Part shown: in pieces, positions 14,794 through 42,920 of the stretch
Layout of the letters: each line of letters starts with the position of its first letter
How positions within the stretch are numbered: the first letter of the stretch is position 1
IMG/VR virus record: IMGVR_UViG_3300045988_025922
Span: 1-42,920 of that record
Length of the DNA: 42,920 nt
Direction: 5' to 3' (one strand)
Origin: a virus
The notes under the pieces: model-generated
The model's database searches: none
Seen by the model: only the letters and a program-made list of their open reading frames with translations
Told to the model about the DNA's origin: nothing
Position numbers and translations under genes: made by a program

Positions 14794-17448
14794 ATGGCAA
14801 ATTGGACTGAATTAATTGCGGCGATTAACGCTGTTATTAAAACAAACGGGAACCGGGCAATTACCGGGGCAATCCTGCAAAACGTGTTGGATACAATGGT
14901 TACGAATTTGGGAGCAAACCGACAATATGCCGGGGTTGCAACCCGTCGAACCAATCCGGGAACCCCGGACGGAAATGTTTATTACCTTGCAAACGGCGGC
15001 GGCACGTTTACGGGGTTCGGGGAATTGGTTGTTGACGCCCGGCAATTAACCCTTTTGTACAACACGGCGTCCGGTTGGGGTAAACTTGCGTTGAATGTTC
15101 CGACGGCGGCAGAATCAGCCAAAACACGGGTATTGGGTGCAACGGGTTACAATTGGAATTTATACGACCCGGCGACCCGTTCGTTAAATACTAAATTGGA
15201 CGCAAGCGGCAACCCGATAGAATCAACCATTTTTGATACGTCCGATTATATACCGGTATCGCAGGGTTCATATACAGCCGCCCCCGGTGCGGGGATGTTG
15301 CGTTTGTATGATGCCGGAAAGTCCTATTTATCAACAATAGGTACGGCGGTTGGTAATATTGCCCCCTTTGACCGAATACAGGAATTTATTATTGCCAATC
15401 CGAATGCGGCGTTTGCCCGATTGGTTGTATATCAAGAAACCGCCGATATATGCGTATTTTCCCGGCGTGCGGTTCCAATGGATTACGGGATTAGCCAATA
15501 CGCAAGTCCGGCAACCGAACACAATATTGCAAATACGGTTGGGTTGGCACGGGTAAAAATTCCGTTCCGGTTAAGAACCAATAGCCAAACGCCCGTTATT
15601 GATAAGAACGGTAACGATTATTTCCCCGTTGATAAAAGCCGGGATATTTCGGATTATATCAATGTAACCCAATTAACGGACATAACTATTACAACAAAAA
15701 ATGGAAAGTTAATTGCGCCGTGTTTGTTCATGTATGGTGCGGACTTTTCATATTTGGGTATGATAGGCAATAATATGGGTGCGGTTGAACAATATACAGC
15801 GTCGTTAGTTGGTCGAAATGCCGCGTATGTTATTGCCCTTTTCAGACGTCCCGAAAATCTGCCAAATAATGTGGCGGGAACGTATGACGTTGAAATTACG
15901 GGAACAATTAAAGGGTCGTCAATTGAAGTGTTCAAACCGAACCAACAATTAACCCCGTATGCAATGCCGTTTACAATTCGGAATAATGAACAACCACCGA
16001 CCGCCGCCGGATATGTTCCCGACCCGGAACGAGATTGTACCGATTATATCCCAACCGCCGGGGTCAAGTCTTTTAAAATGACAGCCGGGGGCGACAATGT
16101 TATTGGGGGTATTTCAGTATATAACGCAAAAGCAACAAACCGCGTAACAGTTGGCAATTATAATAATTATGTACCGGAGTTCGTATATACCCCGGAACCC
16201 GGACAAAATTATTTCGTTGCCGTAACCCGACGCCCCGGTTTTCCGTCCAATGCGGCAAAATTTGCAATTGAAGCAACCCCCGTTGGAACCGCCGTTGCGA
16301 TTATGGAAAACAAACAACCGCCCGCCAATGGCGTTTACTCGACCGACCCGGAAAGGGACGTAACGGATTATATCCCGGTATTGGGTAAAACGTTGGTAAC
16401 AATGAAAGGCAACGGAAAAAAGGTATCATGTGCGTTTATGTTTTATGAGAGCAAACAAAGTGTTGGCGTAACCGTTGGTAATTTTGCCAACTATGCCAAC
16501 GAATTTACGGCGGAGGTTCCCGAAAACGCCCGTTATGTTGTGGTTGTTACCCGTCGCCCCGGAATGCCAAACAATGCCGATTCAATCAGTATTGAAGTTG
16601 TAGGAACCCCAACGTTAATGTATTTCGGAAATGAGGTTTACGACCCGGCACAGGATACCAATTTGATTGCCCGTATTGCGGATAAAATCGACGTGCAGAA
16701 CGTAAATTTGGAGGGTAAGAAAGCCGCCGTTTTTGGTTCGTCGAATACAACCCAATATTACGGAATTTGGTTCCAAGACCTTTGCGATTATTTCAAAATG
16801 GATTATAAGATTTACGGGATTGGCGGCGCAACGTATCCGATTGTTCCCGGAAATAATGTTTGGAGTGGCGCAAGTGGTATCGCGGAGGAAGTTTTGGGAC
16901 AACCAAACAGCATGGTAACGGAGGTTGAATATAAATTGAACAACGACCCAACGTTTATACCGGACGTATTTATGTTCAATTCCGGGTTCAATGAAGCGGC
17001 ATTAAAACCGCCCGTTGGAGATTTGGCAACCGTGTTTACAAAAACGTTGGACGAAATACGCAATAGTACCGATTCAAATTTTGGTATCAATACGTTAATT
17101 GGCGGTATGCGTTGGTGCTTAGAAACGTTAATGATAAATTACCCGGATGCGGTATTTATCGGTATGATACCGTTTCAAGCCTCAAACGTTCCGACCGCCT
17201 ATTTTATTGAAACCCTTTTGCAACCAATGTTGGAAACGTTCGGACGGTTGGCAATCCCGGTTATCAATTGTTTGTATGACGGCGGGTTTTACTCACAGTT
17301 TGAGAACGCCGCCCCGTACAAATATACCGTCGATTCAATTCATGTTCGATTAGGAACAAACATAAACGAGAAAGGGCGATTTGTTCAAAACGAGTTTTTG
17401 AAACGCAATTTCTTAAATGTATATTACCCAAAGAATAACGCACAATGA
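14794..17448 (+). CDS. tail fibre / receptor-binding protein with four tandem modules and a C-terminal SGNH (GDSL-type) esterase domain
   Basis: 884 aa. It has repeated D-x-T/S-D-Y-I-P/N-V/T and A-x-x-R-R-P motifs. C-terminal SGNH blocks are AAVFGSSNT (I), GIGGAT (II), FNSGFNEA (III) and DSIHV (V). Confidence 0.7.
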   Translation: MANWTELIAAINAVIKTNGNRAITGAILQNVLDTMVTNLGANRQYAGVATRRTNPGTPDGNVYYLANGGGTFTGFGELVVDARQLTLLYNTASGWGKLALNVPTAAESAKTRVLGATGYNWNLYDPATRSLNTKLDASGNPIESTIFDTSDYIPVSQGSYTAAPGAGMLRLYDAGKSYLSTIGTAVGNIAPFDRIQEFIIANPNAAFARLVVYQETADICVFSRRAVPMDYGISQYASPATEHNIANTVGLARVKIPFRLRTNSQTPVIDKNGNDYFPVDKSRDISDYINVTQLTDITITTKNGKLIAPCLFMYGADFSYLGMIGNNMGAVEQYTASLVGRNAAYVIALFRRPENLPNNVAGTYDVEITGTIKGSSIEVFKPNQQLTPYAMPFTIRNNEQPPTAAGYVPDPERDCTDYIPTAGVKSFKMTAGGDNVIGGISVYNAKATNRVTVGNYNNYVPEFVYTPEPGQNYFVAVTRRPGFPSNAAKFAIEATPVGTAVAIMENKQPPANGVYSTDPERDVTDYIPVLGKTLVTMKGNGKKVSCAFMFYESKQSVGVTVGNFANYANEFTAEVPENARYVVVVTRRPGMPNNADSISIEVVGTPTLMYFGNEVYDPAQDTNLIARIADKIDVQNVNLEGKKAAVFGSSNTTQYYGIWFQDLCDYFKMDYKIYGIGGATYPIVPGNNVWSGASGIAEEVLGQPNSMVTEVEYKLNNDPTFIPDVFMFNSGFNEAALKPPVGDLATVFTKTLDEIRNSTDSNFGINTLIGGMRWCLETLMINYPDAVFIGMIPFQASNVPTAYFIETLLQPMLETFGRLAIPVINCLYDGGFYSQFENAAPYKYTVDSIHVRLGTNINEKGRFVQNEFLKRNFLNVYYPKNNAQ

Positions 17449-23018: not shown

Positions 23019-23744
23019 ATGAAAGGACGAATAAAGCAACCGGAGGCGCAAAAGCCCCGGTTAATATTGCCGAGGGTCGGCAAAATAAAAATCGGAATGA
23101 AAGGCGCAAACGGGTATCCGCAAAGCGTCGATTATTTTATACCAACCGGAAAATATGCCGGGTTATTTACACAGGCATACGGAGAAAAGCCGCAAACCGT
23201 ACAAATTGTTTTCCCGGACGACGACCCGGCGAAAGTTTGCAACGAGCAATACGAGTACCGGGACGATGCCGGGCGGCGCATTGCTTACGGCGACGGGGAA
23301 ACGTTCGACGTATGGGACGGGAAAAAATACGAAACGTTGAGCGTGTCGGATTATCCAAACCTTATGGCGGGCGTTGCTAAAAAATACCCCAATCGTAAAG
23401 TCCAAAAGGGCGGCGACGGTTGGGATATAACGTTGACGTTGAATTTTATTTGCCCGTTGGTTCGTGGCGTTGCCGGAATATGGACGTTTGAAACAAAGGG
23501 TACAGCGTCCACAATTCCCAATATCCGGGACACGTTCGACGGGATGTTGTCGGAACGTGGGTTTGTAAAGGGAGTAATATTTGATTTGAATGTACAATTT
23601 GCCACAACCCAAAAGCCGGGCGACAATTCCCGTTTTCCCGTTGTGTCGTTGGTTCCCAATGAAAGTGCAGATAATGTGTTAAAAGTTAAAAAGGCATGGG
23701 AGCCGATAAAACAATTGGAGGGCGGCGATAATGGCAACGAATAA
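23019..23744 (+). CDS. hypothetical protein; possible ssDNA-binding/annealing partner of the nuclease
   Basis: 241-aa ORF adjacent to the exonuclease, with an AGAGCGATG start context. The assignment rests on position only. Confidence 0.3.
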   Translation: MKGRIKQPEAQKPRLILPRVGKIKIGMKGANGYPQSVDYFIPTGKYAGLFTQAYGEKPQTVQIVFPDDDPAKVCNEQYEYRDDAGRRIAYGDGETFDVWDGKKYETLSVSDYPNLMAGVAKKYPNRKVQKGGDGWDITLTLNFICPLVRGVAGIWTFETKGTASTIPNIRDTFDGMLSERGFVKGVIFDLNVQFATTQKPGDNSRFPVVSLVPNESADNVLKVKKAWEPIKQLEGGDNGNE

Positions 23745-24588
23745 TAATACAATAACCCGACGCAAGTATGACCGGGATTTTACGATTGTATCGAATGATT
23801 TTTTAAAGGATTCCCGGTTGAGTTGGAAAGCAAAAGGAATAATTGCATACGTTGCAATGTTGCCGGATGATTGGGTTTTAAATATGCGGGATTTGACGAA
23901 CCGAGCAACGGACGGGCGGGATAGTCTGTATAGTGGGATTAAAGAGTTAGAAACGTGCGGATATTGTGCAAAGACAATGAAACGGAACCCGGACGGAACG
24001 ATTGCGGGTTATGCGTATGAGATTTGCGACAAACCCGTTTTCGACCAACCATTTACGGAAAATCCGGTTACGGATGCACCACAACCGGAAAACCCGGATA
24101 CGGTTAAACCCGATACGGATAAACCGGGTACGGAAAATCCGACACTAATAAATACTAATGATACAAAGGACGTAAATAAACCAAGTACGAAAGGTACAAA
24201 CCCCGCCAACGATGTTGTCGGCGGCTTATTCCCGGATAACGATATTGTGATTGTGGATAAAAAGAAAACAACGATATTTCGTAATTCCGGCGTTTACAAG
24301 TTGGTAAAGTTTGGGGCGGACGGCATAAACGATTATTCCGAATTTGAAAAACTCTTTGCTACACCGGAATTTGCACCCGTCGATTTGATTTATTATTTTC
24401 ATTCCGTAGCCGATTGGTCGGATACTAAAATTGGCGTCAAACGAAATTTCAACGGTTGGGTTGCAACCGTGCGTAATTTCATACGGGGGGACATTGAAAA
24501 AAAGAAAGTGCATTTGAAACCGGAAAACCAAGCCCCGCAAAACCGATTGGATATTGGCGGCGCAATGGATTTTCTTAATGATTATTGA
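23731..24588 (+). CDS. replication initiator / replisome organiser (N-terminal winged-helix)
   Basis: The N-terminus FTIVSNDFLKDSRLSWKAKGIIAYVAMLPDDWVLNMRDL...IKELETCGY resembles the phage replication-initiator winged-helix pattern. A central 15-bp tandem repeat forms the linker. Confidence 0.5.
   Translation: MATNNNTITRRKYDRDFTIVSNDFLKDSRLSWKAKGIIAYVAMLPDDWVLNMRDLTNRATDGRDSLYSGIKELETCGYCAKTMKRNPDGTIAGYAYEICDKPVFDQPFTENPVTDAPQPENPDTVKPDTDKPGTENPTLINTNDTKDVNKPSTKGTNPANDVVGGLFPDNDIVIVDKKKTTIFRNSGVYKLVKFGADGINDYSEFEKLFATPEFAPVDLIYYFHSVADWSDTKIGVKRNFNGWVATVRNFIRGDIEKKKVHLKPENQAPQNRLDIGGAMDFLNDY
24051..24140 (+). repeat. six tandem 15-bp units (core TACGGA/T) inside the initiator gene; candidate iterons
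   Basis: tacgga/tacggt cores at 24054, 24069, 24099, 24114 and 24129, spaced 15 or 30 bp. The units encode pentapeptide repeats (TENPV TDAPQ PENPD TVKPD TDKPG TENPT). Confidence 0.6.
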
Positions 24589-24592
24589 GCGT

Positions 24593-25546
24593 ATGGAAAC
24601 ATTATCCGAAAAATTGCCGGATAAGATACAGAGCGTTGCAATTGCGGTATATTATCCAAAGCCCGGAACAAAGGCAATAGACATTCGGCGGCAAATGGTC
24701 GAATTACCGGAGGTTGCCAAATCATTAACGCCAATTGAAAAGTACATATTTGCGGCGTCAACGAAAACCCAAATTTGCGAAATGGACGACGCCACGTTGG
24801 TTGCGAAAACCGGGCAAATGTTCAAGTTTATAGCAATGGACGTTGGGTTTAGGGTTCCAACCGACCGGGACGAATGGGCGTATATTTGTACCCGGTTATT
24901 GGATATACTAAAACGGTATTATTCGCAATTAACATTGGCGGATATAAAGTTGGCATTTGAGTTGGCGACGACCGGGGAATTGAACGAATATTTACCAAAA
25001 GACAGTCAAGGCAACCCGGATAAAAACCATTACCAACAATTCAACGCCGAGTATTTCGCAAAGATTCTGAACGCTTACAAGCGCAAACAGAACGGCGCAA
25101 TTTCCAAAGCATATACAGCGTTGCCCGAACCCAAACGGGAAATATCCCCGGAGAAAAAACGGGAATACCATAACGATACCGTCGAACGTTGCCGGAATGC
25201 TTTTTTGGAATATAAATACCGGGGTAAATATGACGCCGGAATGTTGGGCGATATGTTCGTTTACAATTGGTTGTATGCCGTTGGGTTGGCGGATGAAGTC
25301 AAACAAACCGAGGACGACCGCAAAACCGCCTTATCTCGTTATTTGCAACGAGCCGCCGCCGGGTGGTATAATCGTTTTGAAGTGGAAAGCGTCCGCCGTA
25401 AACAGACGGAAAGCCCCGAAATTGATTATACAGCGTTTGAGGTTGCCCGTCATAAAGAGATTAAAAAAGCATTTGACCGCATGATTGTGGATGAATTGCA
25501 AGTTGATAATTATTTGAATTATTGGAATGAACACAATAACGATTGA
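24593..25546 (+). CDS. hypothetical replication-module protein
   Basis: The start is chosen at ATG 24593 (METLSEK), after the upstream stop at 24586-24588. 317 aa. Confidence 0.5.
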   Translation: METLSEKLPDKIQSVAIAVYYPKPGTKAIDIRRQMVELPEVAKSLTPIEKYIFAASTKTQICEMDDATLVAKTGQMFKFIAMDVGFRVPTDRDEWAYICTRLLDILKRYYSQLTLADIKLAFELATTGELNEYLPKDSQGNPDKNHYQQFNAEYFAKILNAYKRKQNGAISKAYTALPEPKREISPEKKREYHNDTVERCRNAFLEYKYRGKYDAGMLGDMFVYNWLYAVGLADEVKQTEDDRKTALSRYLQRAAAGWYNRFEVESVRRKQTESPEIDYTAFEVARHKEIKKAFDRMIVDELQVDNYLNYWNEHNND

Positions 25547-26090: not shown

Positions 26091-26316
26091 ATGGGTAAGA
26101 GTATGGCAGACGAACAAACAACCCTTAAAACGGAAAATTTGAAAGAAATAACTTTGCCGGATTTTGTCGAAATGGTAAAGCAGATGCGACACAACCAACG
26201 GCGATGCGAACGGGAACCCAACCCCGGAAAAAACAAATACCCGGATAGAATGGGAACGGAAAGTTGATGCCGTGGTTGCCGCCCTTACCGATACACAATT
26301 GGCATTATGGAAATGA
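26091..26316 (+). pseudogene. small gene interrupted at an A6 run (54-58 aa as written, about 75 aa if one A is skipped)
   Basis: ATG at 26091 or 26103 (AGAGTATG context) reads MADEQTTLKTENLKEITLPDFVEMVKQMRHNQRR... to TGA at 26267. The +1 frame is open from 26179 to TGA at 26316 and overlaps the next start by 10 nt. Confidence 0.5.
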
Positions 26317-26501: not shown

Positions 26502-26540
26502 AAAAAACTTTTGGAGATTAAAAGAATTACCGTATATTTG
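26502..26540 (+). promoter_or_regulatory. Bacteroidota-type promoter, copy 1 of an exact 39-bp duplicate
   Basis: aaaaaacTTTTGgagattaaaagaattaccgTAtaTTTG: TTTG at 26510-26513, a 19-nt spacer, then TAtaTTTG at 26533-26540. The same 39 bp occur at 31241-31279. Confidence 0.75.
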
Positions 26541-26596
26541 TGGCATGAAATAACAACGACCGGGCGTTTTCCCGGAACAAAAAAACAATTAGAGCG

Positions 26597-26807: not shown

Positions 26808-26829
26808 GCCGGGGGCGCAATCCCCCGGC
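26808..26829 (+). terminator. GC hairpin (cassette copy 2)
   Basis: gccggggg cgcaat cccccggc, with the same flanks as the 19888 hairpin. Confidence 0.55.
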
Positions 26830-30413: not shown

Positions 30414-31241
30414 ATGAAAGTCTTTAATTTGAGCGATGTTTGTTTTTTCGATTGTGAAACAACCGGGGTTCCCGGAAAATCCCAAAAATGGGACGTCGAT
30501 TTTATGGAGTTCCCGCACGTCGTACAATTGGCGTGGTCGTTGGGCGACAAAGAACGCAGTTTTATAATTAAGCCGGACAATTACGAGATACCGCCGGAAA
30601 CGACCGCCATACATGGCATAACGACCGAACGAGCAATTGCCGAGGGCGTACCGTTTGCCGAGGTTGTGGACGAATTTTTGGCAGATGCCGCCGCCGCCCC
30701 GCTTGTATGTGCGCACAACATTTATTTCGATACGTCGATGTTGAAAGCAAACATATTGCGGTATTGTGGCAAAGCGTATTACGACGCCAAAGCCGAGGAC
30801 GCATTGCACAAAGGCAAACGGGTTGATACCATGATGAAAACAATACGGTTTGTTGGTGCGTGTTATTCTAACGGTAAGCCGGGAAAGTTCCCCAAATTGG
30901 AGGAATTATATGCAAAGTTGTTTCCCGGCGAAACGTTCCCGGCGCACGATGCGTTACAGGACATACGAGCGTTACGCCGTTGCGTCCCGGAATTGGTCGA
31001 ATTGGGGATTATAGAGTTGAAACAAAAGGAATACCCGGCGGAGCAATTAAAATTGAATGTAGAGCCGGAAAAGGAGCAAAGCGGGCGTAATATCGTATTT
31101 AATGACCCCAACCCGGTAACGGAACCAATTGGAACCGCCACGGCGTCCAATGAACCGCCCGCACCGGAACCGGAGCCGGAACGCCCGGCGGGGGTTACAA
31201 ATCAAGCCACAAAGGAATTATTGGACGAAACCGAGTTTTAA
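30414..31241 (+). CDS. DEDDh 3'-5' exonuclease (DnaQ/epsilon-like)
   Basis: Exo I FFDCETTG, Exo II CAHNIYFDTSML, Exo III FPAHDALQDIRAL. Confidence 0.8.
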   Translation: MKVFNLSDVCFFDCETTGVPGKSQKWDVDFMEFPHVVQLAWSLGDKERSFIIKPDNYEIPPETTAIHGITTERAIAEGVPFAEVVDEFLADAAAAPLVCAHNIYFDTSMLKANILRYCGKAYYDAKAEDALHKGKRVDTMMKTIRFVGACYSNGKPGKFPKLEELYAKLFPGETFPAHDALQDIRALRRCVPELVELGIIELKQKEYPAEQLKLNVEPEKEQSGRNIVFNDPNPVTEPIGTATASNEPPAPEPEPERPAGVTNQATKELLDETEF

Positions 31242-31279
31242 AAAAACTTTTGGAGATTAAAAGAATTACCGTATATTTG
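31241..31279 (+). promoter_or_regulatory. Bacteroidota-type promoter, copy 2 of the exact 39-bp duplicate
   Basis: Identical to 26502-26540. TTTG at 31249-31252 and TAtaTTTG at 31272-31279. Followed by hairpin ccggggg taatattg cccccgg at 31289-31310. Confidence 0.75.
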
Positions 31280-31331
31280 CGGAAACGTCCGGGGGTAATA
31301 TTGCCCCCGGATAACCAATAAAAGCGATGTA

Positions 31332-31706
31332 ATGGCAAAAAGAACAAAAGACGAATTTACACGGGATTGGATTATTGAACAATCCATTGACGTGTTAAGC
31401 GGCTACGAAAACGGAATTTTAACGATACGTGCGTTGCACTATCAGTTAGTAAGCCGGGGAATGACAAACACGTTACAGCATTATAAACGTGTTGTCGCCG
31501 CAATGGAGGTCGCCCGGTGGGATGGACGGGTTGATTTTGAGGCATTCAGCGACCGCGACCGGGGAATGGTTGGCGTAACGAAAGCCGAGATAACCGATTT
31601 AGAGGACAAACAAACCGAGGCAAAACAGCAAGTCCGGGCGTGGATGAACGCATACAGAAAAAAACCGTTGGGAAAACCAACCATATTACCCGGAAATCCT
31701 TATTGA
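31332..31706 (+). CDS. Topo VI-A/Spo11-like protein, fragment 1 (winged-helix 5Y-CAP-like part)
   Basis: Contains ILTIRALHYQLVSRG (R-x-x-H-Y). The ORF ends 40 nt after an A7 run (31658-31664), where the +1 frame continues the protein. Confidence 0.6.
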   Translation: MAKRTKDEFTRDWIIEQSIDVLSGYENGILTIRALHYQLVSRGMTNTLQHYKRVVAAMEVARWDGRVDFEAFSDRDRGMVGVTKAEITDLEDKQTEAKQQVRAWMNAYRKKPLGKPTILPGNPY

Positions 31707-31716
31707 GAAAAAAGCA

Positions 31717-31926
31717 TTGGAGGGCGTTTTTGCGAAACCGTGCCGAGAATGGGACGTTGCCGTTGGAGCCTGCAAGGGGTATCCGTCGTTGACGTTTTTA
31801 TTTGAGTTGTCCGAACGATTACGGGACGCCCAAAACGAGGGCAAACAGCCGATAATATTGTATTTCGGCGATTACGACCCGTCCGGCGAGGACATTACCC
31901 CGGTCGATTGGCGAGAATTTGGATAA
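31717..31926 (+). CDS. Topo VI-A/Spo11-like protein, fragment 2 (Toprim core)
   Basis: The frame is open from 31648. Reads NRWENQPYYPEILIEKKALEGVF...CKGYPS...ILYFGDYDPSGEDI (acidic E, G-x-P and DxD motifs). Confidence 0.6.
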   Translation: MEGVFAKPCREWDVAVGACKGYPSLTFLFELSERLRDAQNEGKQPIILYFGDYDPSGEDITPVDWREFG

Positions 31927-32221
31927 ATTCGGGGTTTATGGCGTGGAAATTCGCCGTATTGCGTTAATGGAACAACAGGTTATCGAATGGAAGTTGCCGC
32001 CCGCCCCGGCAAAGGAAACGGACAGCCGGACGGCGAATTGGGACGGATTGGGACAGGTTGAGTTAGACGCCGTAAAACCGGAAAAATTGGTTGCCTTGTT
32101 AAACGATGCAATCGGCGAAATATTCGACAACGATTTGTACGACGAATTGCAAGCGACCGAGGACAAAGAACGGGAATTGTTCCAAACGGAATTGCGCCGT
32201 TATGTAACCGAAGAAATTTAA
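31919..32221 (+). CDS. Topo VI-A/Spo11-like protein, fragment 3 (C-terminal part)
   Basis: The frame is open upstream through the C4 run (31898-31901). Reads RSIGENLDKFGVYGVEIRRIALMEQQVIEWKLPPAP... Confidence 0.6.
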   Translation: MDKFGVYGVEIRRIALMEQQVIEWKLPPAPAKETDSRTANWDGLGQVELDAVKPEKLVALLNDAIGEIFDNDLYDELQATEDKERELFQTELRRYVTEEI

Positions 32222-32241: not shown

Positions 32242-32550
32242 ATGAATACCAAAGTTTGTGTAAAATGCAATATCGAAAAACCCGTTGAAAATTTTTCCAA
32301 GTCGTCAAGTAGTAAGGACGGGTTGCAATCCTATTGTCGGGAATGCCAAAGCGAGGCAAACAGGGCGTCCGCATTGCGCCGAAAATGCGGGGGGGGGGGT
32401 AAGATACCCCAATTAAATAAAGTGTCTAAAATCGACTCAAATAACCCTTTATCGGGATTTACGCCCCGTGAGTTGATGCGGGAATTATATAACCGGGGTT
32501 ATATTGGCGAATTGACATTTTCGCAAAAGATAGATATTTCAAAATTGTAA
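32242..32550 (+). CDS. Zn-finger protein with an internal poly-G tract
   Basis: 102 aa. CVKC...CREC zinc-finger N-terminal half and a GFTPRELMRELYNRGYIGEL C-terminal half, joined by GGGG encoded by G11. Confidence 0.6.
   Translation: MNTKVCVKCNIEKPVENFSKSSSSKDGLQSYCRECQSEANRASALRRKCGGGGKIPQLNKVSKIDSNNPLSGFTPRELMRELYNRGYIGELTFSQKIDISKL
32389..32399 (+). repeat. G11 homopolymer inside a CDS
   Basis: tgc ggg ggg ggg ggt aag, with eleven consecutive G. Confidence 0.9.
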
Positions 32551-32590
32551 ACCGCCGCCGGGCGGGTTCCCGGCAACAAATAATTCATTT

Positions 32591-33283
32591 ATGAGTACAG
32601 AGGAAAAAAAGGCAACGGACGTTATGTTTGTCCCGTCTGAAAAGTCGTTTGCATTGTCAAAGGTCAAGTTGATAAAGGACGGCGGGTTGGATGTTCATTA
32701 CGAAGTTACCGAAACGGTCGGTAATGAGAGTTACACAAACAAATACCACGTCGAAAGCGCAAAGGACATACACCCCGATTTGCGGGCGTGTTTTGAGCGT
32801 TTGCGCCCAATCATGGGTCGCATTTTCAATATTACGTCCTTTTTGTCGTTTATGGAAACGCCGGAAACAAAGGCGACCAAAGCACAAAAAGACGCCGCCC
32901 GTGAGTATGCCGACGAAATGTTGAAAAATATCGAAGTTCGGGGCGTGTCCTTTTCCGGTCAAGATGATAATGTTGGCGTTGTGCTTACCGGGTTGTTTAC
33001 GGTATCCAACAATCAAAAGACGGCGATAAATTCGCCCCGCCTTAAATTCAATACCGAAACGTTCGGGTTTGAGGAAGAATTGGAGGAAACCGCCGGGGAT
33101 ATTGAACGGGAAGTTTACGCCTTTTTGTTCAAAGGGAAAAAGGCGCAATTGGAGTTGTTCGGAGCCGACGGAAACGCCGCCCCCGGAGTTGAGAACGAAC
33201 CGGGTTTGTTCCCGGATGTTAACGACCCCGCAAATGAGAACGACAACGATAACGGAGGCGACGACGAAACCGGGGATATTTAA
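32591..33283 (+). CDS. hypothetical protein with an acidic C-terminus
   Basis: 230-aa ORF with an Asp/Asn/Glu-rich tail (NDPANENDNDNGGDDETGDI). Confidence 0.55.
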   Translation: MSTEEKKATDVMFVPSEKSFALSKVKLIKDGGLDVHYEVTETVGNESYTNKYHVESAKDIHPDLRACFERLRPIMGRIFNITSFLSFMETPETKATKAQKDAAREYADEMLKNIEVRGVSFSGQDDNVGVVLTGLFTVSNNQKTAINSPRLKFNTETFGFEEELEETAGDIEREVYAFLFKGKKAQLELFGADGNAAPGVENEPGLFPDVNDPANENDNDNGGDDETGDI

Positions 33284-37137: not shown

Positions 37138-38081
37138 AAAAATTAACCCCTTTTGATGCGGAATGTATCCGTATGATTGCGGACATTACACACGTCGAAC
37201 CGCAAGTTGAGCAAAAAGACGGACGTATTTACGGTTGCAGTTATGTTGGGAACCGTGCCAACCGAAACAATACAGGCGTTGCAAAACGCCATTATCGGGC
37301 GATTGGGCGAACGGTTGAAGTTACACGGAACAACCGACGACCAATTGATTTTTACGATTGCAACGACCCGGAGGGCGAAACGTTGCCCGATATGTTGGGC
37401 GGCGATGTTATCGAAATCGACCCCAACGCCGGAACCCGGTATTGTCGTACACTCAAAGAAATAAACGCAATACAGGTTGACCGGGACAACGTGGAGGAAT
37501 TGCAACGATTTACGGGCGGCGGTTCTATGACAATACCACGTATTCCCGGCGGCATTGGGATATATTCGTTTATCAGCGATAACGGGTTGTCAATCGACGT
37601 GCCGGAAACGTGGTACATTATCCGAGAGGACAACGGCAAATTTTCCAAGTATCCAAACAGGGATTTTAACAAAGAATTTGAGCCGAAAGAATTTGAACGT
37701 TGCGAGAATTGCGAAACGAACGTTGAAACCGAAAAGATGTTGCACGACCGGGAGGGCGTACCACTTTGCCCGGAGTGCGTCGAGGCATTAAGCGGCGACC
37801 CGGAATTTGAATTGGTTGGAGTTCTGAAAATAAAAGAGGAACGGGAAAGCCAAGTTTATGAACACGGGTACGATGTTACCCACGACCGCAATAACAACAA
37901 ACACGGGGAAATAAAACAAGCCGTCGCCGCAATATTGAACGACGATTTGGATTTGTTCGCCCGGACGGGTTGGGATTATGAGTTTTACCACCATATCAAA
38001 GCGAAACCCGAATTGGAACAATTGGCAATATGCGGCGCATTGGTAGCCGCCGAGATAGACAGATTAACCACTAAAAAATAA
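37134..38081 (+). CDS. hypothetical protein; the C-terminal all-alpha domain resembles MazG/DUF550-type NTP pyrophosphohydrolases
   Basis: The C-terminal ...KHGEIKQAVAAILNDD...WDYEFYHHIKAKPELEQLAICGALVAAEIDRL resembles a phage NTP-PPase family from memory. The middle has CENC...CPEC. Confidence 0.35.
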   Translation: MKKLTPFDAECIRMIADITHVEPQVEQKDGRIYGCSYVGNRANRNNTGVAKRHYRAIGRTVEVTRNNRRPIDFYDCNDPEGETLPDMLGGDVIEIDPNAGTRYCRTLKEINAIQVDRDNVEELQRFTGGGSMTIPRIPGGIGIYSFISDNGLSIDVPETWYIIREDNGKFSKYPNRDFNKEFEPKEFERCENCETNVETEKMLHDREGVPLCPECVEALSGDPEFELVGVLKIKEERESQVYEHGYDVTHDRNNNKHGEIKQAVAAILNDDLDLFARTGWDYEFYHHIKAKPELEQLAICGALVAAEIDRLTTKK

Positions 38082-42739: not shown

Positions 42740-42920
42740 CCGGGCGGTTTATCATCAAAACCGTATAAATTTCCACGCTCAAACCCGTATATCGGGATAC
42801 GACATAAACCAACCCGTTACGGACTTTTTGGCGTTTGTCGGAAACCTATTGCCGCATGATAAGTTTAAGATGTTCAAAACATTGTTCCGTTACCCCGTTA
42901 AAACAAACGAGGTAACGGGC
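42675..42920 (+). CDS. portal protein, 5' segment (continues at base 5 through the circular junction)
   Basis: ATG at 42675 is in the same frame as ATG 42870 (which is base 5). No stop intervenes. It reads MGLSIEEIKRRIKEPKKRATISRAVYHQNRINFHAQTRISGYDINQPVTDFLAFVGNLLPHDKFK-MFKTLF..., giving a portal of about 579 aa. Confidence 0.55.
   Translation, partial: MGLSIEEIKRRIKEPKKRATISRAVYHQNRINFHAQTRISGYDINQPVTDFLAFVGNLLPHDKFKMFKTLFRYPVKTNEVTG
42866..42920. repeat. second copy of the 55-bp terminal direct repeat
   Basis: Identical to bases 1-55. Confidence 0.9.

Follow-up and report, generated by a model that had tools for sequence, protein, structure and literature searches.

Mini-A proteins were described by Takahashi et al. 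(PMC7671362) as virus- or provirus-encoded homologues of the type IIB topoisomerase A subunit, ~300 amino acids (aa) long, which lack the N-terminal part that binds the B subunit and have no B subunit encoded nearby. Three motifs define them, namely R-x-x-aromatic-Y (R-x-x-Y/F-Y), a glutamate followed by DxDxxG, and a C-terminal T2BI box of the form xWELDAL, the last of which sets Mini-A apart both from Topo VI (R/KxExxA/S) and from Topo VIII (RVELNAM). The carriers named were Chi-like Salmonella, Pseudomonas and Listeria phages. Here we describe a locus of this kind in the virus record IMGVR_UViG_3300045988_025922 of IMG/VR, a stretch of 42,920 nucleotides (nt) that was analysed at its full length and is called the window below; at positions 31332–32221 it carries a gene divided among three open reading frames (ORFs). 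Our analysis makes it likely that this is a Mini-A gene, that is, a virus-encoded stand-alone homologue of Top6A/Spo11, recently inactivated by two genuine duplications of a single base, A6 to A7 and T to TT. As in the published family, the protein appears to consist of the 5Y-CAP and Toprim domains only, the N-terminal Top6B-binding part is missing, and the gene is phage-encoded with no B subunit. The window copy differs in being split by two frameshifts. That a single phage lineage can be polymorphic for the presence of the gene and contain decaying copies of it, which does not feature in the published description (PMC7671362), is shown here.

The three consecutive ORFs occupy 31332–31706 (frame 0), 31717–31926 (frame +1) and 31919–32221 (frame +2), and two single-base deletions, one at each junction, yield an 888-nt ORF for a protein of 295 aa. 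An earlier note on this DNA, made from the letters alone, had proposed that the ORFs read as one product of about that length. Such a product is supported by a match of the repaired protein to phrog_6247 ('DNA topoisomerase'), which extends over residues 29–286 (E=7e-65) and crosses both junctions, and by the numerous uninterrupted 295-aa proteins in the protein database, up to 99% identical to it. Close homologues are indeed uninterrupted, intact relatives being 97–99% identical in DNA. We placed the lesions by alignment with two of ~97% DNA identity (L001, JGI 3300009856; L002, Logan ERR14040631). The first lies where the note had put it, in the A7 run, which is A6 in the relatives; beyond codon 109 the first ORF continues out of frame to a stop at 31706. 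The second had been assigned to the C4 run at 31898–31901 and has to be moved, since the extra base is a T at 31896/31897 beside that run, changing GACATACCCC to GACATTACCCC. Because the T adjoins the C4 run rather than falling within it, the native junction reads ...GEDIPRSIG... and not ...GEDIT/RSIG.... With two +1 insertions and three frames, this copy is not an intact Mini-A coding sequence, and no full-length product can be made from this genome unless both lesions are bypassed.

Profile and motif comparisons support the membership of the repaired protein in the Mini-A family. A word index returned 1,910 homologues, and the family comprises 6,452 clusters (50% identity, E<=0.001); tblastn located it in 84 cultured-phage records, including Chi-like Salmonella, Pseudomonas and Listeria phages and one haloarchaeal virus. 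For the family alignment and profile we used 98 diverse homologues, mostly 31–38% identical to the repaired protein (the eight closest rows excepted). The R-x-x-H-Y, IEK, KGYPS and DYDPSG (DxD) motifs pointed out in the earlier note are all present, with R33, Y37, E125, K126, G149, S152, D180, D182 and G185 invariant across the 98 sequences, as are D74, R77, K227 and E243. The residue before the tyrosine of the R33-A-L-H-Y37 motif is Y in 70 of the homologues, F in 16 and H, as here, in 11. At the C-terminus, the x[W/V]ELDA[L/I/V] box (residues 241–247) reads QVELDAV in this protein; its columns hold W in 48 and V in 43 of the sequences, followed by E (98), L (93), D (97), A (97) and L, I or V (95). 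Every published Mini-A motif (R-x-x-aromatic-Y, E...DxDxxG and the xWELDAL-type box) is therefore found in the repaired protein, which departs from the published forms in its His before the Tyr and its Val for Trp. Weak Pfam matches among the 98 members (DUF2399 in 17, TP6A_N in 6, JetD_C in 4 and TOP6A-Spo11_Toprim in 2) all fall within the Top6A/Spo11/JetD Toprim group, and PADLOC gave weak JetD matches only; the repaired protein itself has no Pfam match at the curated threshold. The statement of the earlier note that the genome holds no B-subunit or GHKL gene agrees, at the sensitivity of Pfam, with the precomputed Pfam tables, where no GHKL/HATPase or Topo VI-B family occurs among the genes of ~1045–42221; its identification of a stand-alone Topo VI-A/Spo11-like protein of the 'Mini-A' type agrees with the profile and motif evidence. 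As the family dates back to 2019 and GenBank already labels close relatives 'DNA topoisomerase', novelty is low, and no new system is involved.

The source phage is a gut Bacteroidales siphophage, kin of Alistipes phage AS73P1 and of Bacteroides phages C1_85S2P and BKO1-3, and its relatives display Mini-A in various states of preservation. Among 55 loci retrieved with Mini-A (L001–L004 included, the window excluded), six have a frame change in the gene, no two of them at the same codon and most of them away from long homopolymers (Table 1); L048 and L049, which share a 4-bp deletion and are 100% identical over 5.5 kb, were counted once. Large deletions affect three further loci: Mini-A residues 1–158 are gone together with the exonuclease gene in L056, exonuclease residue ~125 is fused to Mini-A residue 188 in L057, and only residues 1–96 remain in L058. 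For eight neighbouring genes of the Mini-A-retrieved loci, 367 gene copies contain 6 frame changes, and frameshifted copies of Mini-A are thus enriched about six-fold (Fisher p=0.002, or p=0.007 without Parabacteroides phage PDS1). We dropped PDS1, whose Mini-A is split at codon 128 into gp28 and gp29, as proof of viability without the gene, as TerL is frameshifted in the same record. That GenBank record (L004, MN929097) shows frameshifts in both Mini-A and the large terminase (15138–16024 and 23502–25054) and annotates Mini-A as 'DNA topoisomerase' plus 'DNA primase', so that indel errors and mis-split annotations are probable in this record.

To be free of ascertainment through Mini-A itself, a second set of 80 loci was retrieved via the downstream 230-aa gene, and the content between the exonuclease gene and that gene was classified. 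This slot is empty (53–58 nt) at 50 of the loci and contains an intact Mini-A at 17, a disrupted Mini-A at 4, a C5 cytosine DNA methylase at 2 and something other at 7. In four of the seven others (L152, L153, L155 and L216) a promoter/hairpin leader and a short unrelated insert precede the last 56–67 nt of Mini-A, stop codon included, at 89–93% identity; this 3' remnant is direct evidence of deletion. The methylase, a 350-aa protein (PF00145, E=5.9e-46), takes the place of Mini-A at 2313–3365 of L146, the cultured Parabacteroides phage PD491P1, and is also found in L167 and L226. Intact Mini-A is present in the cultured relatives AS73P1, C1_85S2P and BKO1-3 and lacking from PD491P1. Mini-A is thus shown to be optional cargo in an exchangeable variable slot, dispensable in this phage group, with every stage of its loss visible, and the window represents the earliest stage, a fresh pseudogene of an accessory gene.

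The earlier note had left it between a gene that is mis-assembled, recoded or freshly inactivated, and the evidence favours the last and disfavours the other two. First, the truncated 124-aa product of the first ORF is recorded on four contigs. Three were identified, of 42,920 (the window), 42,912 and 42,984 nt, the longest length on record being 42,991 nt, and the differing lengths of these concordant assemblies fit the use of different assemblers or k-mer sizes. Two concordant contigs whose DNA was compared match the window at 100% identity along 6.4 and 20.3 kb, each with both lesions. One concordant contig is labelled XIEH16 / SAMEA3449334, which we take to be from an Illumina twin-cohort study; indel errors in Illumina consensus sequences are rare. 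Second, the window differs from the nearest intact Mini-A gene by 15 synonymous codons and 1 non-synonymous codon, all catalytic residues still being encoded, which indicates purifying selection on the gene until very recently. Lastly, a scan of the whole window with AS73P1 proteins found the reading frame broken in Mini-A and one small gene near 26212 and nowhere else, and the chance of at least two of the genome's three frameshifting insertions falling within the 888 nt of Mini-A is P=0.0013 under a uniform model. Such clustering is expected if selection removes frameshifts from essential genes, and is unexpected from random error. The small gene (26103–26267) carries a GG to GGG duplication near 26212 relative to L001 and AS73P1, and its product has 54 aa instead of 69–74 and an altered C-terminus.

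Several observations weigh against genuine inactivation, and would fit a Mini-A that is intact in the real phage, with both extra bases due to sequencing or assembly errors. Each of the three frameshifting changes in the window repeats the base next to it, as indel errors typically do, and lesion 1 is situated in a homopolymer. Neither the A7 nor the TT variant turned up when IMG/VR and the JGI metagenomes were searched for the exact alleles. The concordant contigs exclude an artefact of the assembler but not an error at the read level, as their complete identity may reflect a single read set behind all of them, and the PDS1 record with its frameshifted essential TerL is an example of indel errors within this phage group. 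Such errors would however have to be reconciled with the recovery of the same sequence from assemblies of different k-mer overlaps and lengths, with a second lesion that is not a homopolymer, and with two of three events in 2% of the genome while every large essential gene is intact; the deletions of Mini-A in independent relatives are, moreover, unambiguous. We therefore regard the error explanation as unlikely, and both frameshifts as probably real mutations.

We compared the repaired protein with Top6A at the level of sequence profiles. A phmmer search of PDB sequences with the single protein gave no match. With the 98-sequence profile, the best match among all PDB sequences was M. jannaschii Top6A (1d3y, E=0.006), the only one below E=0.01, and a sub-threshold stretch of this comparison pairs TLRQLYY with TLREAYY. 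As reference, 74 full-length archaeal Top6A proteins were taken from genome loci, because an 81-aa Top6A query gave only short fragments from the protein database. Against this set, hhalign returned 94% probability for the full-length family profile (E ~1e-8 to 1e-7) and 95% for the Toprim half (residues 111–295, E=3.5e-8), as compared with 0.2–0.5% for reversed-sequence controls. The global alignment sets residues 1–295 on Top6A 69–361 (of 369), with R33/Y37 on R99/Y103 and the DxD on D249/D251. Homology of the Toprim half to Top6A is demonstrated by these profile alignments. The N-terminal 110 residues alone give no significant match (P=0.07, probability 0.8%), and the case for 5Y-CAP homology, which we consider likely, is accordingly made from motif, collinearity and predicted topology. 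The best local alignment of this domain pairs residues 11–39 with Top6A 79–105 and Y37 with the catalytic Y103. An AF2 model (pLDDT 94) predicts an N-terminal unit of helix, strand, two helices and wing, the second helix bearing Y37, and then an alternating beta/alpha Toprim-like core; the DSSP assignment of the model has helices at 11–22, 32–40 and 48–63 and strands at ~30 and ~72.

Besides the Toprim part, the probable 5Y-CAP part collinear with it and the aligned catalytic residues, the window protein and Top6A (M. jannaschii 1D3Y)/Spo11 have an LPPxPxKxxD motif in common. The window protein is 70–100 residues shorter, is without a Top6B/TopoVIBL partner (Pfam tables) and stays below the Pfam thresholds of PF04406 and PF21180; and whereas Top6A is cellular and essential, Mini-A is here viral and dispensable. 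It differs from Topo VIII, the plasmid-borne fused type IIB enzyme, in having neither the fused GHKL ATPase and transducer nor the RVELNAM box. In the intact 295-aa product, R33 and Y37 would belong to a winged-helix 5Y-CAP domain and E125 and D180xD182xxG185 to a Toprim domain, with the C-terminal ELDA (T2BI) box as the third part. By analogy with Top6A/Spo11, it could act as a homodimer in which Tyr37 and Arg33 of one subunit work with the E125/D180/D182 metal site of the other, and Mg2+-dependent transesterification to Tyr37 would leave a 5'-phosphotyrosyl-linked break, with no GHKL ATPase partner; in the resting state the ELDA box (E243) may cover the tyrosine. As our literature search found no experimental study or assay of any Mini-A protein, we infer this catalytic mechanism from homology. 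From the position of its gene, directly after a DnaQ-like exonuclease gene and near SSB, ABC/SMC-like ATPase and HNH genes, we postulate a role of the protein in phage replication or recombination. In Pseudomonas phage NP1 (ligase and Sak4), Salmonella phage SPN19 (ThyX) and Listeria phage LWP01 (excisionase and polymerase), Mini-A likewise neighbours replication, recombination or nucleotide-metabolism genes, and no shared partner ('Mini-B') or common ATPase was found in these three.

A second alternative concerns the nature of the protein, which could be a JetD/DUF2399-type Toprim nuclease that acts by hydrolysis, or an unrelated Toprim protein that binds DNA, making the label 'Mini-A/topoisomerase' misleading. 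JetD, a partner of the JetABC SMC complex, is reportedly a hydrolytic nuclease that has no catalytic tyrosine. JetD (Wadjet)/DUF2399 proteins have a Toprim domain of the same subgroup, to judge from the weak Pfam and PADLOC matches of family members, and DUF2399 is the commonest of the weak Pfam matches (17 of 98, best 2e-6), ahead of TP6A_N and the Top6A Toprim. The N-domain that is not significant by itself and the absence of an ATPase partner or strand-passage apparatus point in the same direction. So does the structural comparison: Foldseek with the AF2 model against PDB had no match at E<=0.001, and the 50 matches listed did not include Top6A, the best Toprim protein being RecR; against BFVD it returned no Top6A/Spo11, the sole significant match being a 152-aa PDS1 fragment of Mini-A itself. 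The family call of the earlier note is thus backed by profiles and not by a structural match to the Topo VI-A fold, and given the specificity of the sequence-profile evidence we did not read the missing Foldseek match as a refutation. An arginine and a tyrosine that are invariant in 98 sequences at 31–38% identity are hard to explain without a catalytic tyrosine and set Mini-A apart from JetD, and JetABC is absent here. The best N-domain alignment puts Y37 on Y103 of Top6A, collinear with the Toprim match, and the ELDA box corresponds to the T2BI box, a contact of the catalytic tyrosine in Top6A. A hydrolytic or unrelated Toprim protein is improbable on these grounds.

Recoding, by which polymerase slippage or +1 ribosomal frameshifting at A7 and a +1 shift at ATT-A-CCC would supply some full-length Mini-A, we find highly implausible: A7 runs can support low-level transcriptional slippage, and skipping the A after ATT restores the wild-type D-I-P-R-S exactly, but two independent low-efficiency events would both be required, neither a stimulator nor a slippery context for a +1 shift is known at lesion 2, the 295-aa ORFs of close relatives are uninterrupted, and neither shift site is conserved, the two closest aligned intact relatives having A6 and ATA and the other frameshifts falling at codons 59, 68, 128, 185, 231 and 244.

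The Mini-A gene lies in a replication/recombination module, after the DnaQ-like exonuclease gene that forms the left edge of the variable slot and near genes for an AAA_15/23 (ABC/SMC-like) ATPase, DUF2400, HNH and SSB proteins (Table 1). The window is a circularly closed assembly with a terminal overlap of 55 nt (1–55 / 42866–42920), giving a unit genome of 42,865 bp; the portal gene spans the assembly junction, and the phage genome is complete, with portal, TerL, capsid and tail genes. Downstream of Mini-A, the 102-aa CxxC...CxxC gene contains a G11 homopolymer (32389–32399) that encodes GGGG and is a potentially slippage-prone tract. Elsewhere, an intact gene of ~346 aa differs from L001 by a +1 indel at 37221 and a –1 indel at 37363, 142 nt apart, a compensated frame change by which ~47 residues are recoded in one of the two genomes.

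Table 1. Positions of the features discussed, in window coordinates or, for the frame changes of relatives, in Mini-A codons
Feature	Position	Strand	Details
Second, identical 39-nt promoter cassette	26502–26540	+	Precedes a 67-aa gene; longest substring shared with the first copy is 39 nt
DnaQ-like 3'-5' exonuclease gene, 275 aa	30414–31241	+	Pfam RNase_T E=4.9e-12; kept in 52 related loci
Promoter cassette	31241–31279	+	-33 TTTG 31249–31252, -7 TATATTTG 31272–31279; TTTG-N19-TATATTTG
GC-rich 5' leader hairpin	31287–31312	+	Stem CCGGGGG/CCCCCGG plus flanking pairs
ATG-TAA overlapping the Mini-A ATG	31327–31334	+	ATGTAATG; only in the window, L001, L002, L006 and L007
Mini-A codons 1–109, frame 0, winged-helix 5Y-CAP part	31332–31657	+	R33 31428–31430; catalytic-type Y37 31440–31442
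Lesion 1: A7, A6 in intact relatives	31658–31664	+	One-base insertion, frame 0 to +1; from relative alignment and indel lists
Mini-A codons ~111–187, frame +1, first Toprim half	31665–31895	+	E125 31705–31707; G149/S152; D180 31870–31872; D182 31876–31878
Lesion 2: TT, single T in intact relatives	31896–31897	+	ATA to ATTA, frame +1 to +2; from relative alignment and indel lists
Mini-A codons 188–295 and stop, frame +2, rest of Toprim	31898–32221	+	LPPAPAKETDSR (K227); QVELDAV T2BI box (E243 32060–32062); C-terminal helix
102-aa CxxC...CxxC gene	32242–32550	+	Without Pfam match; in the slot of the closest relatives only (matched in 2 loci)
230-aa gene downstream of Mini-A	32591–33283	+	Without Pfam match; right edge of the variable slot
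Mini-A frame change in relatives	codon 59		GG to GGG
Mini-A frame change in relatives	codon 68		4-bp deletion
Mini-A frame change in relatives	codon 128 (PDS1)		A lost (-1)
Mini-A frame change in relatives	codon 185		C lost
Mini-A frame change in relatives	codon 231		CC to C
Mini-A frame change in relatives	codon 244		TT to T

The leader of the gene had been credited in the earlier note with its own duplicated promoter, a 5' hairpin and an ATG-TAA-TG start-stop element. One promoter is present upstream (31249–31279), of a form that fits what we take to be the Bacteroidetes promoter consensus, TTTG-N19-TATATTTG; it is duplicated only in the sense that a distant copy exists at 26502–26540. The pattern TTTG-N18-21-TANNTTTG occurs five times in the window against 1.5 expected, and two of the copies are identical. 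Both copies of the 39-nt repeat precede a hairpin and a gene start, and the repeat suggests a mobile or duplicated promoter cassette. The leader hairpin is real by RNA folding (dG -22.2 kcal/mol, z=-3.9, none of 200 shuffles as stable), and L008, L009 and L043 have a hairpin of different sequence at the same position. The leader of promoter and hairpin is confined to a subclade, most relatives being leaderless and starting Mini-A 1–7 nt past the exonuclease stop. As for the start-stop element, the ATG-TAA overlap exists, but we rejected it as a functional element because its conservation stops at the five closest loci; other promoter-bearing relatives read GATACAATGG at this place, and the overlap is probably fortuitous. 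The leader hairpin is one of a wider set of hairpins of the form CCGGG-N4-10-CCCGG, of which there are 14 in the window (19477–39767; for example 26560–26575, 26809–26828 and 32558–32573), against 1.2 expected. Several occupy intergenic positions in the early/replication module, and one is found in the 53–58-nt empty slot of relatives; they are perhaps a recurring punctuation element, serving as a terminator or RNA-stability signal.

The loss of Mini-A might be adaptive rather than neutral, an idea that we put forward tentatively and hold to be doubtful. The gene would then be a conditional one in phage–host conflict, with some Bacteroidales hosts selecting loss-of-function alleles. As a speculative extension, Mini-A could be a counter-defence or host-DNA-targeting nuclease, or the breaks that it makes could be sensed by a host abortive-infection system. 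Adaptive loss would account for the enrichment of frameshifts in Mini-A over its neighbours, for the slot alternatively holding a C5 DNA methylase of anti-restriction type, and for both recorded Parabacteroides distasonis isolates being without an intact Mini-A (one with the methylase, the other with a frameshift that is possibly a record error).

For annotation, the three ORFs, listed in public collections as three hypothetical proteins, are better joined into one entry and marked as a pseudogene. Mini-A forms a large branch of the type IIB topoisomerase/Spo11 family that is carried by viruses, and comprises more than 6,000 clusters at 50% identity in our data. New, and of modest use, is its status as an accessory gene that gut Bacteroidales phages have repeatedly lost and whose slot is shared with a DNA methylase. 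That Mini-A is optional and repeatedly lost in this well-sampled group of human-gut phages argues against a core role in replication, and the cultured relatives with and without an intact copy constitute a natural presence/absence panel for its function.

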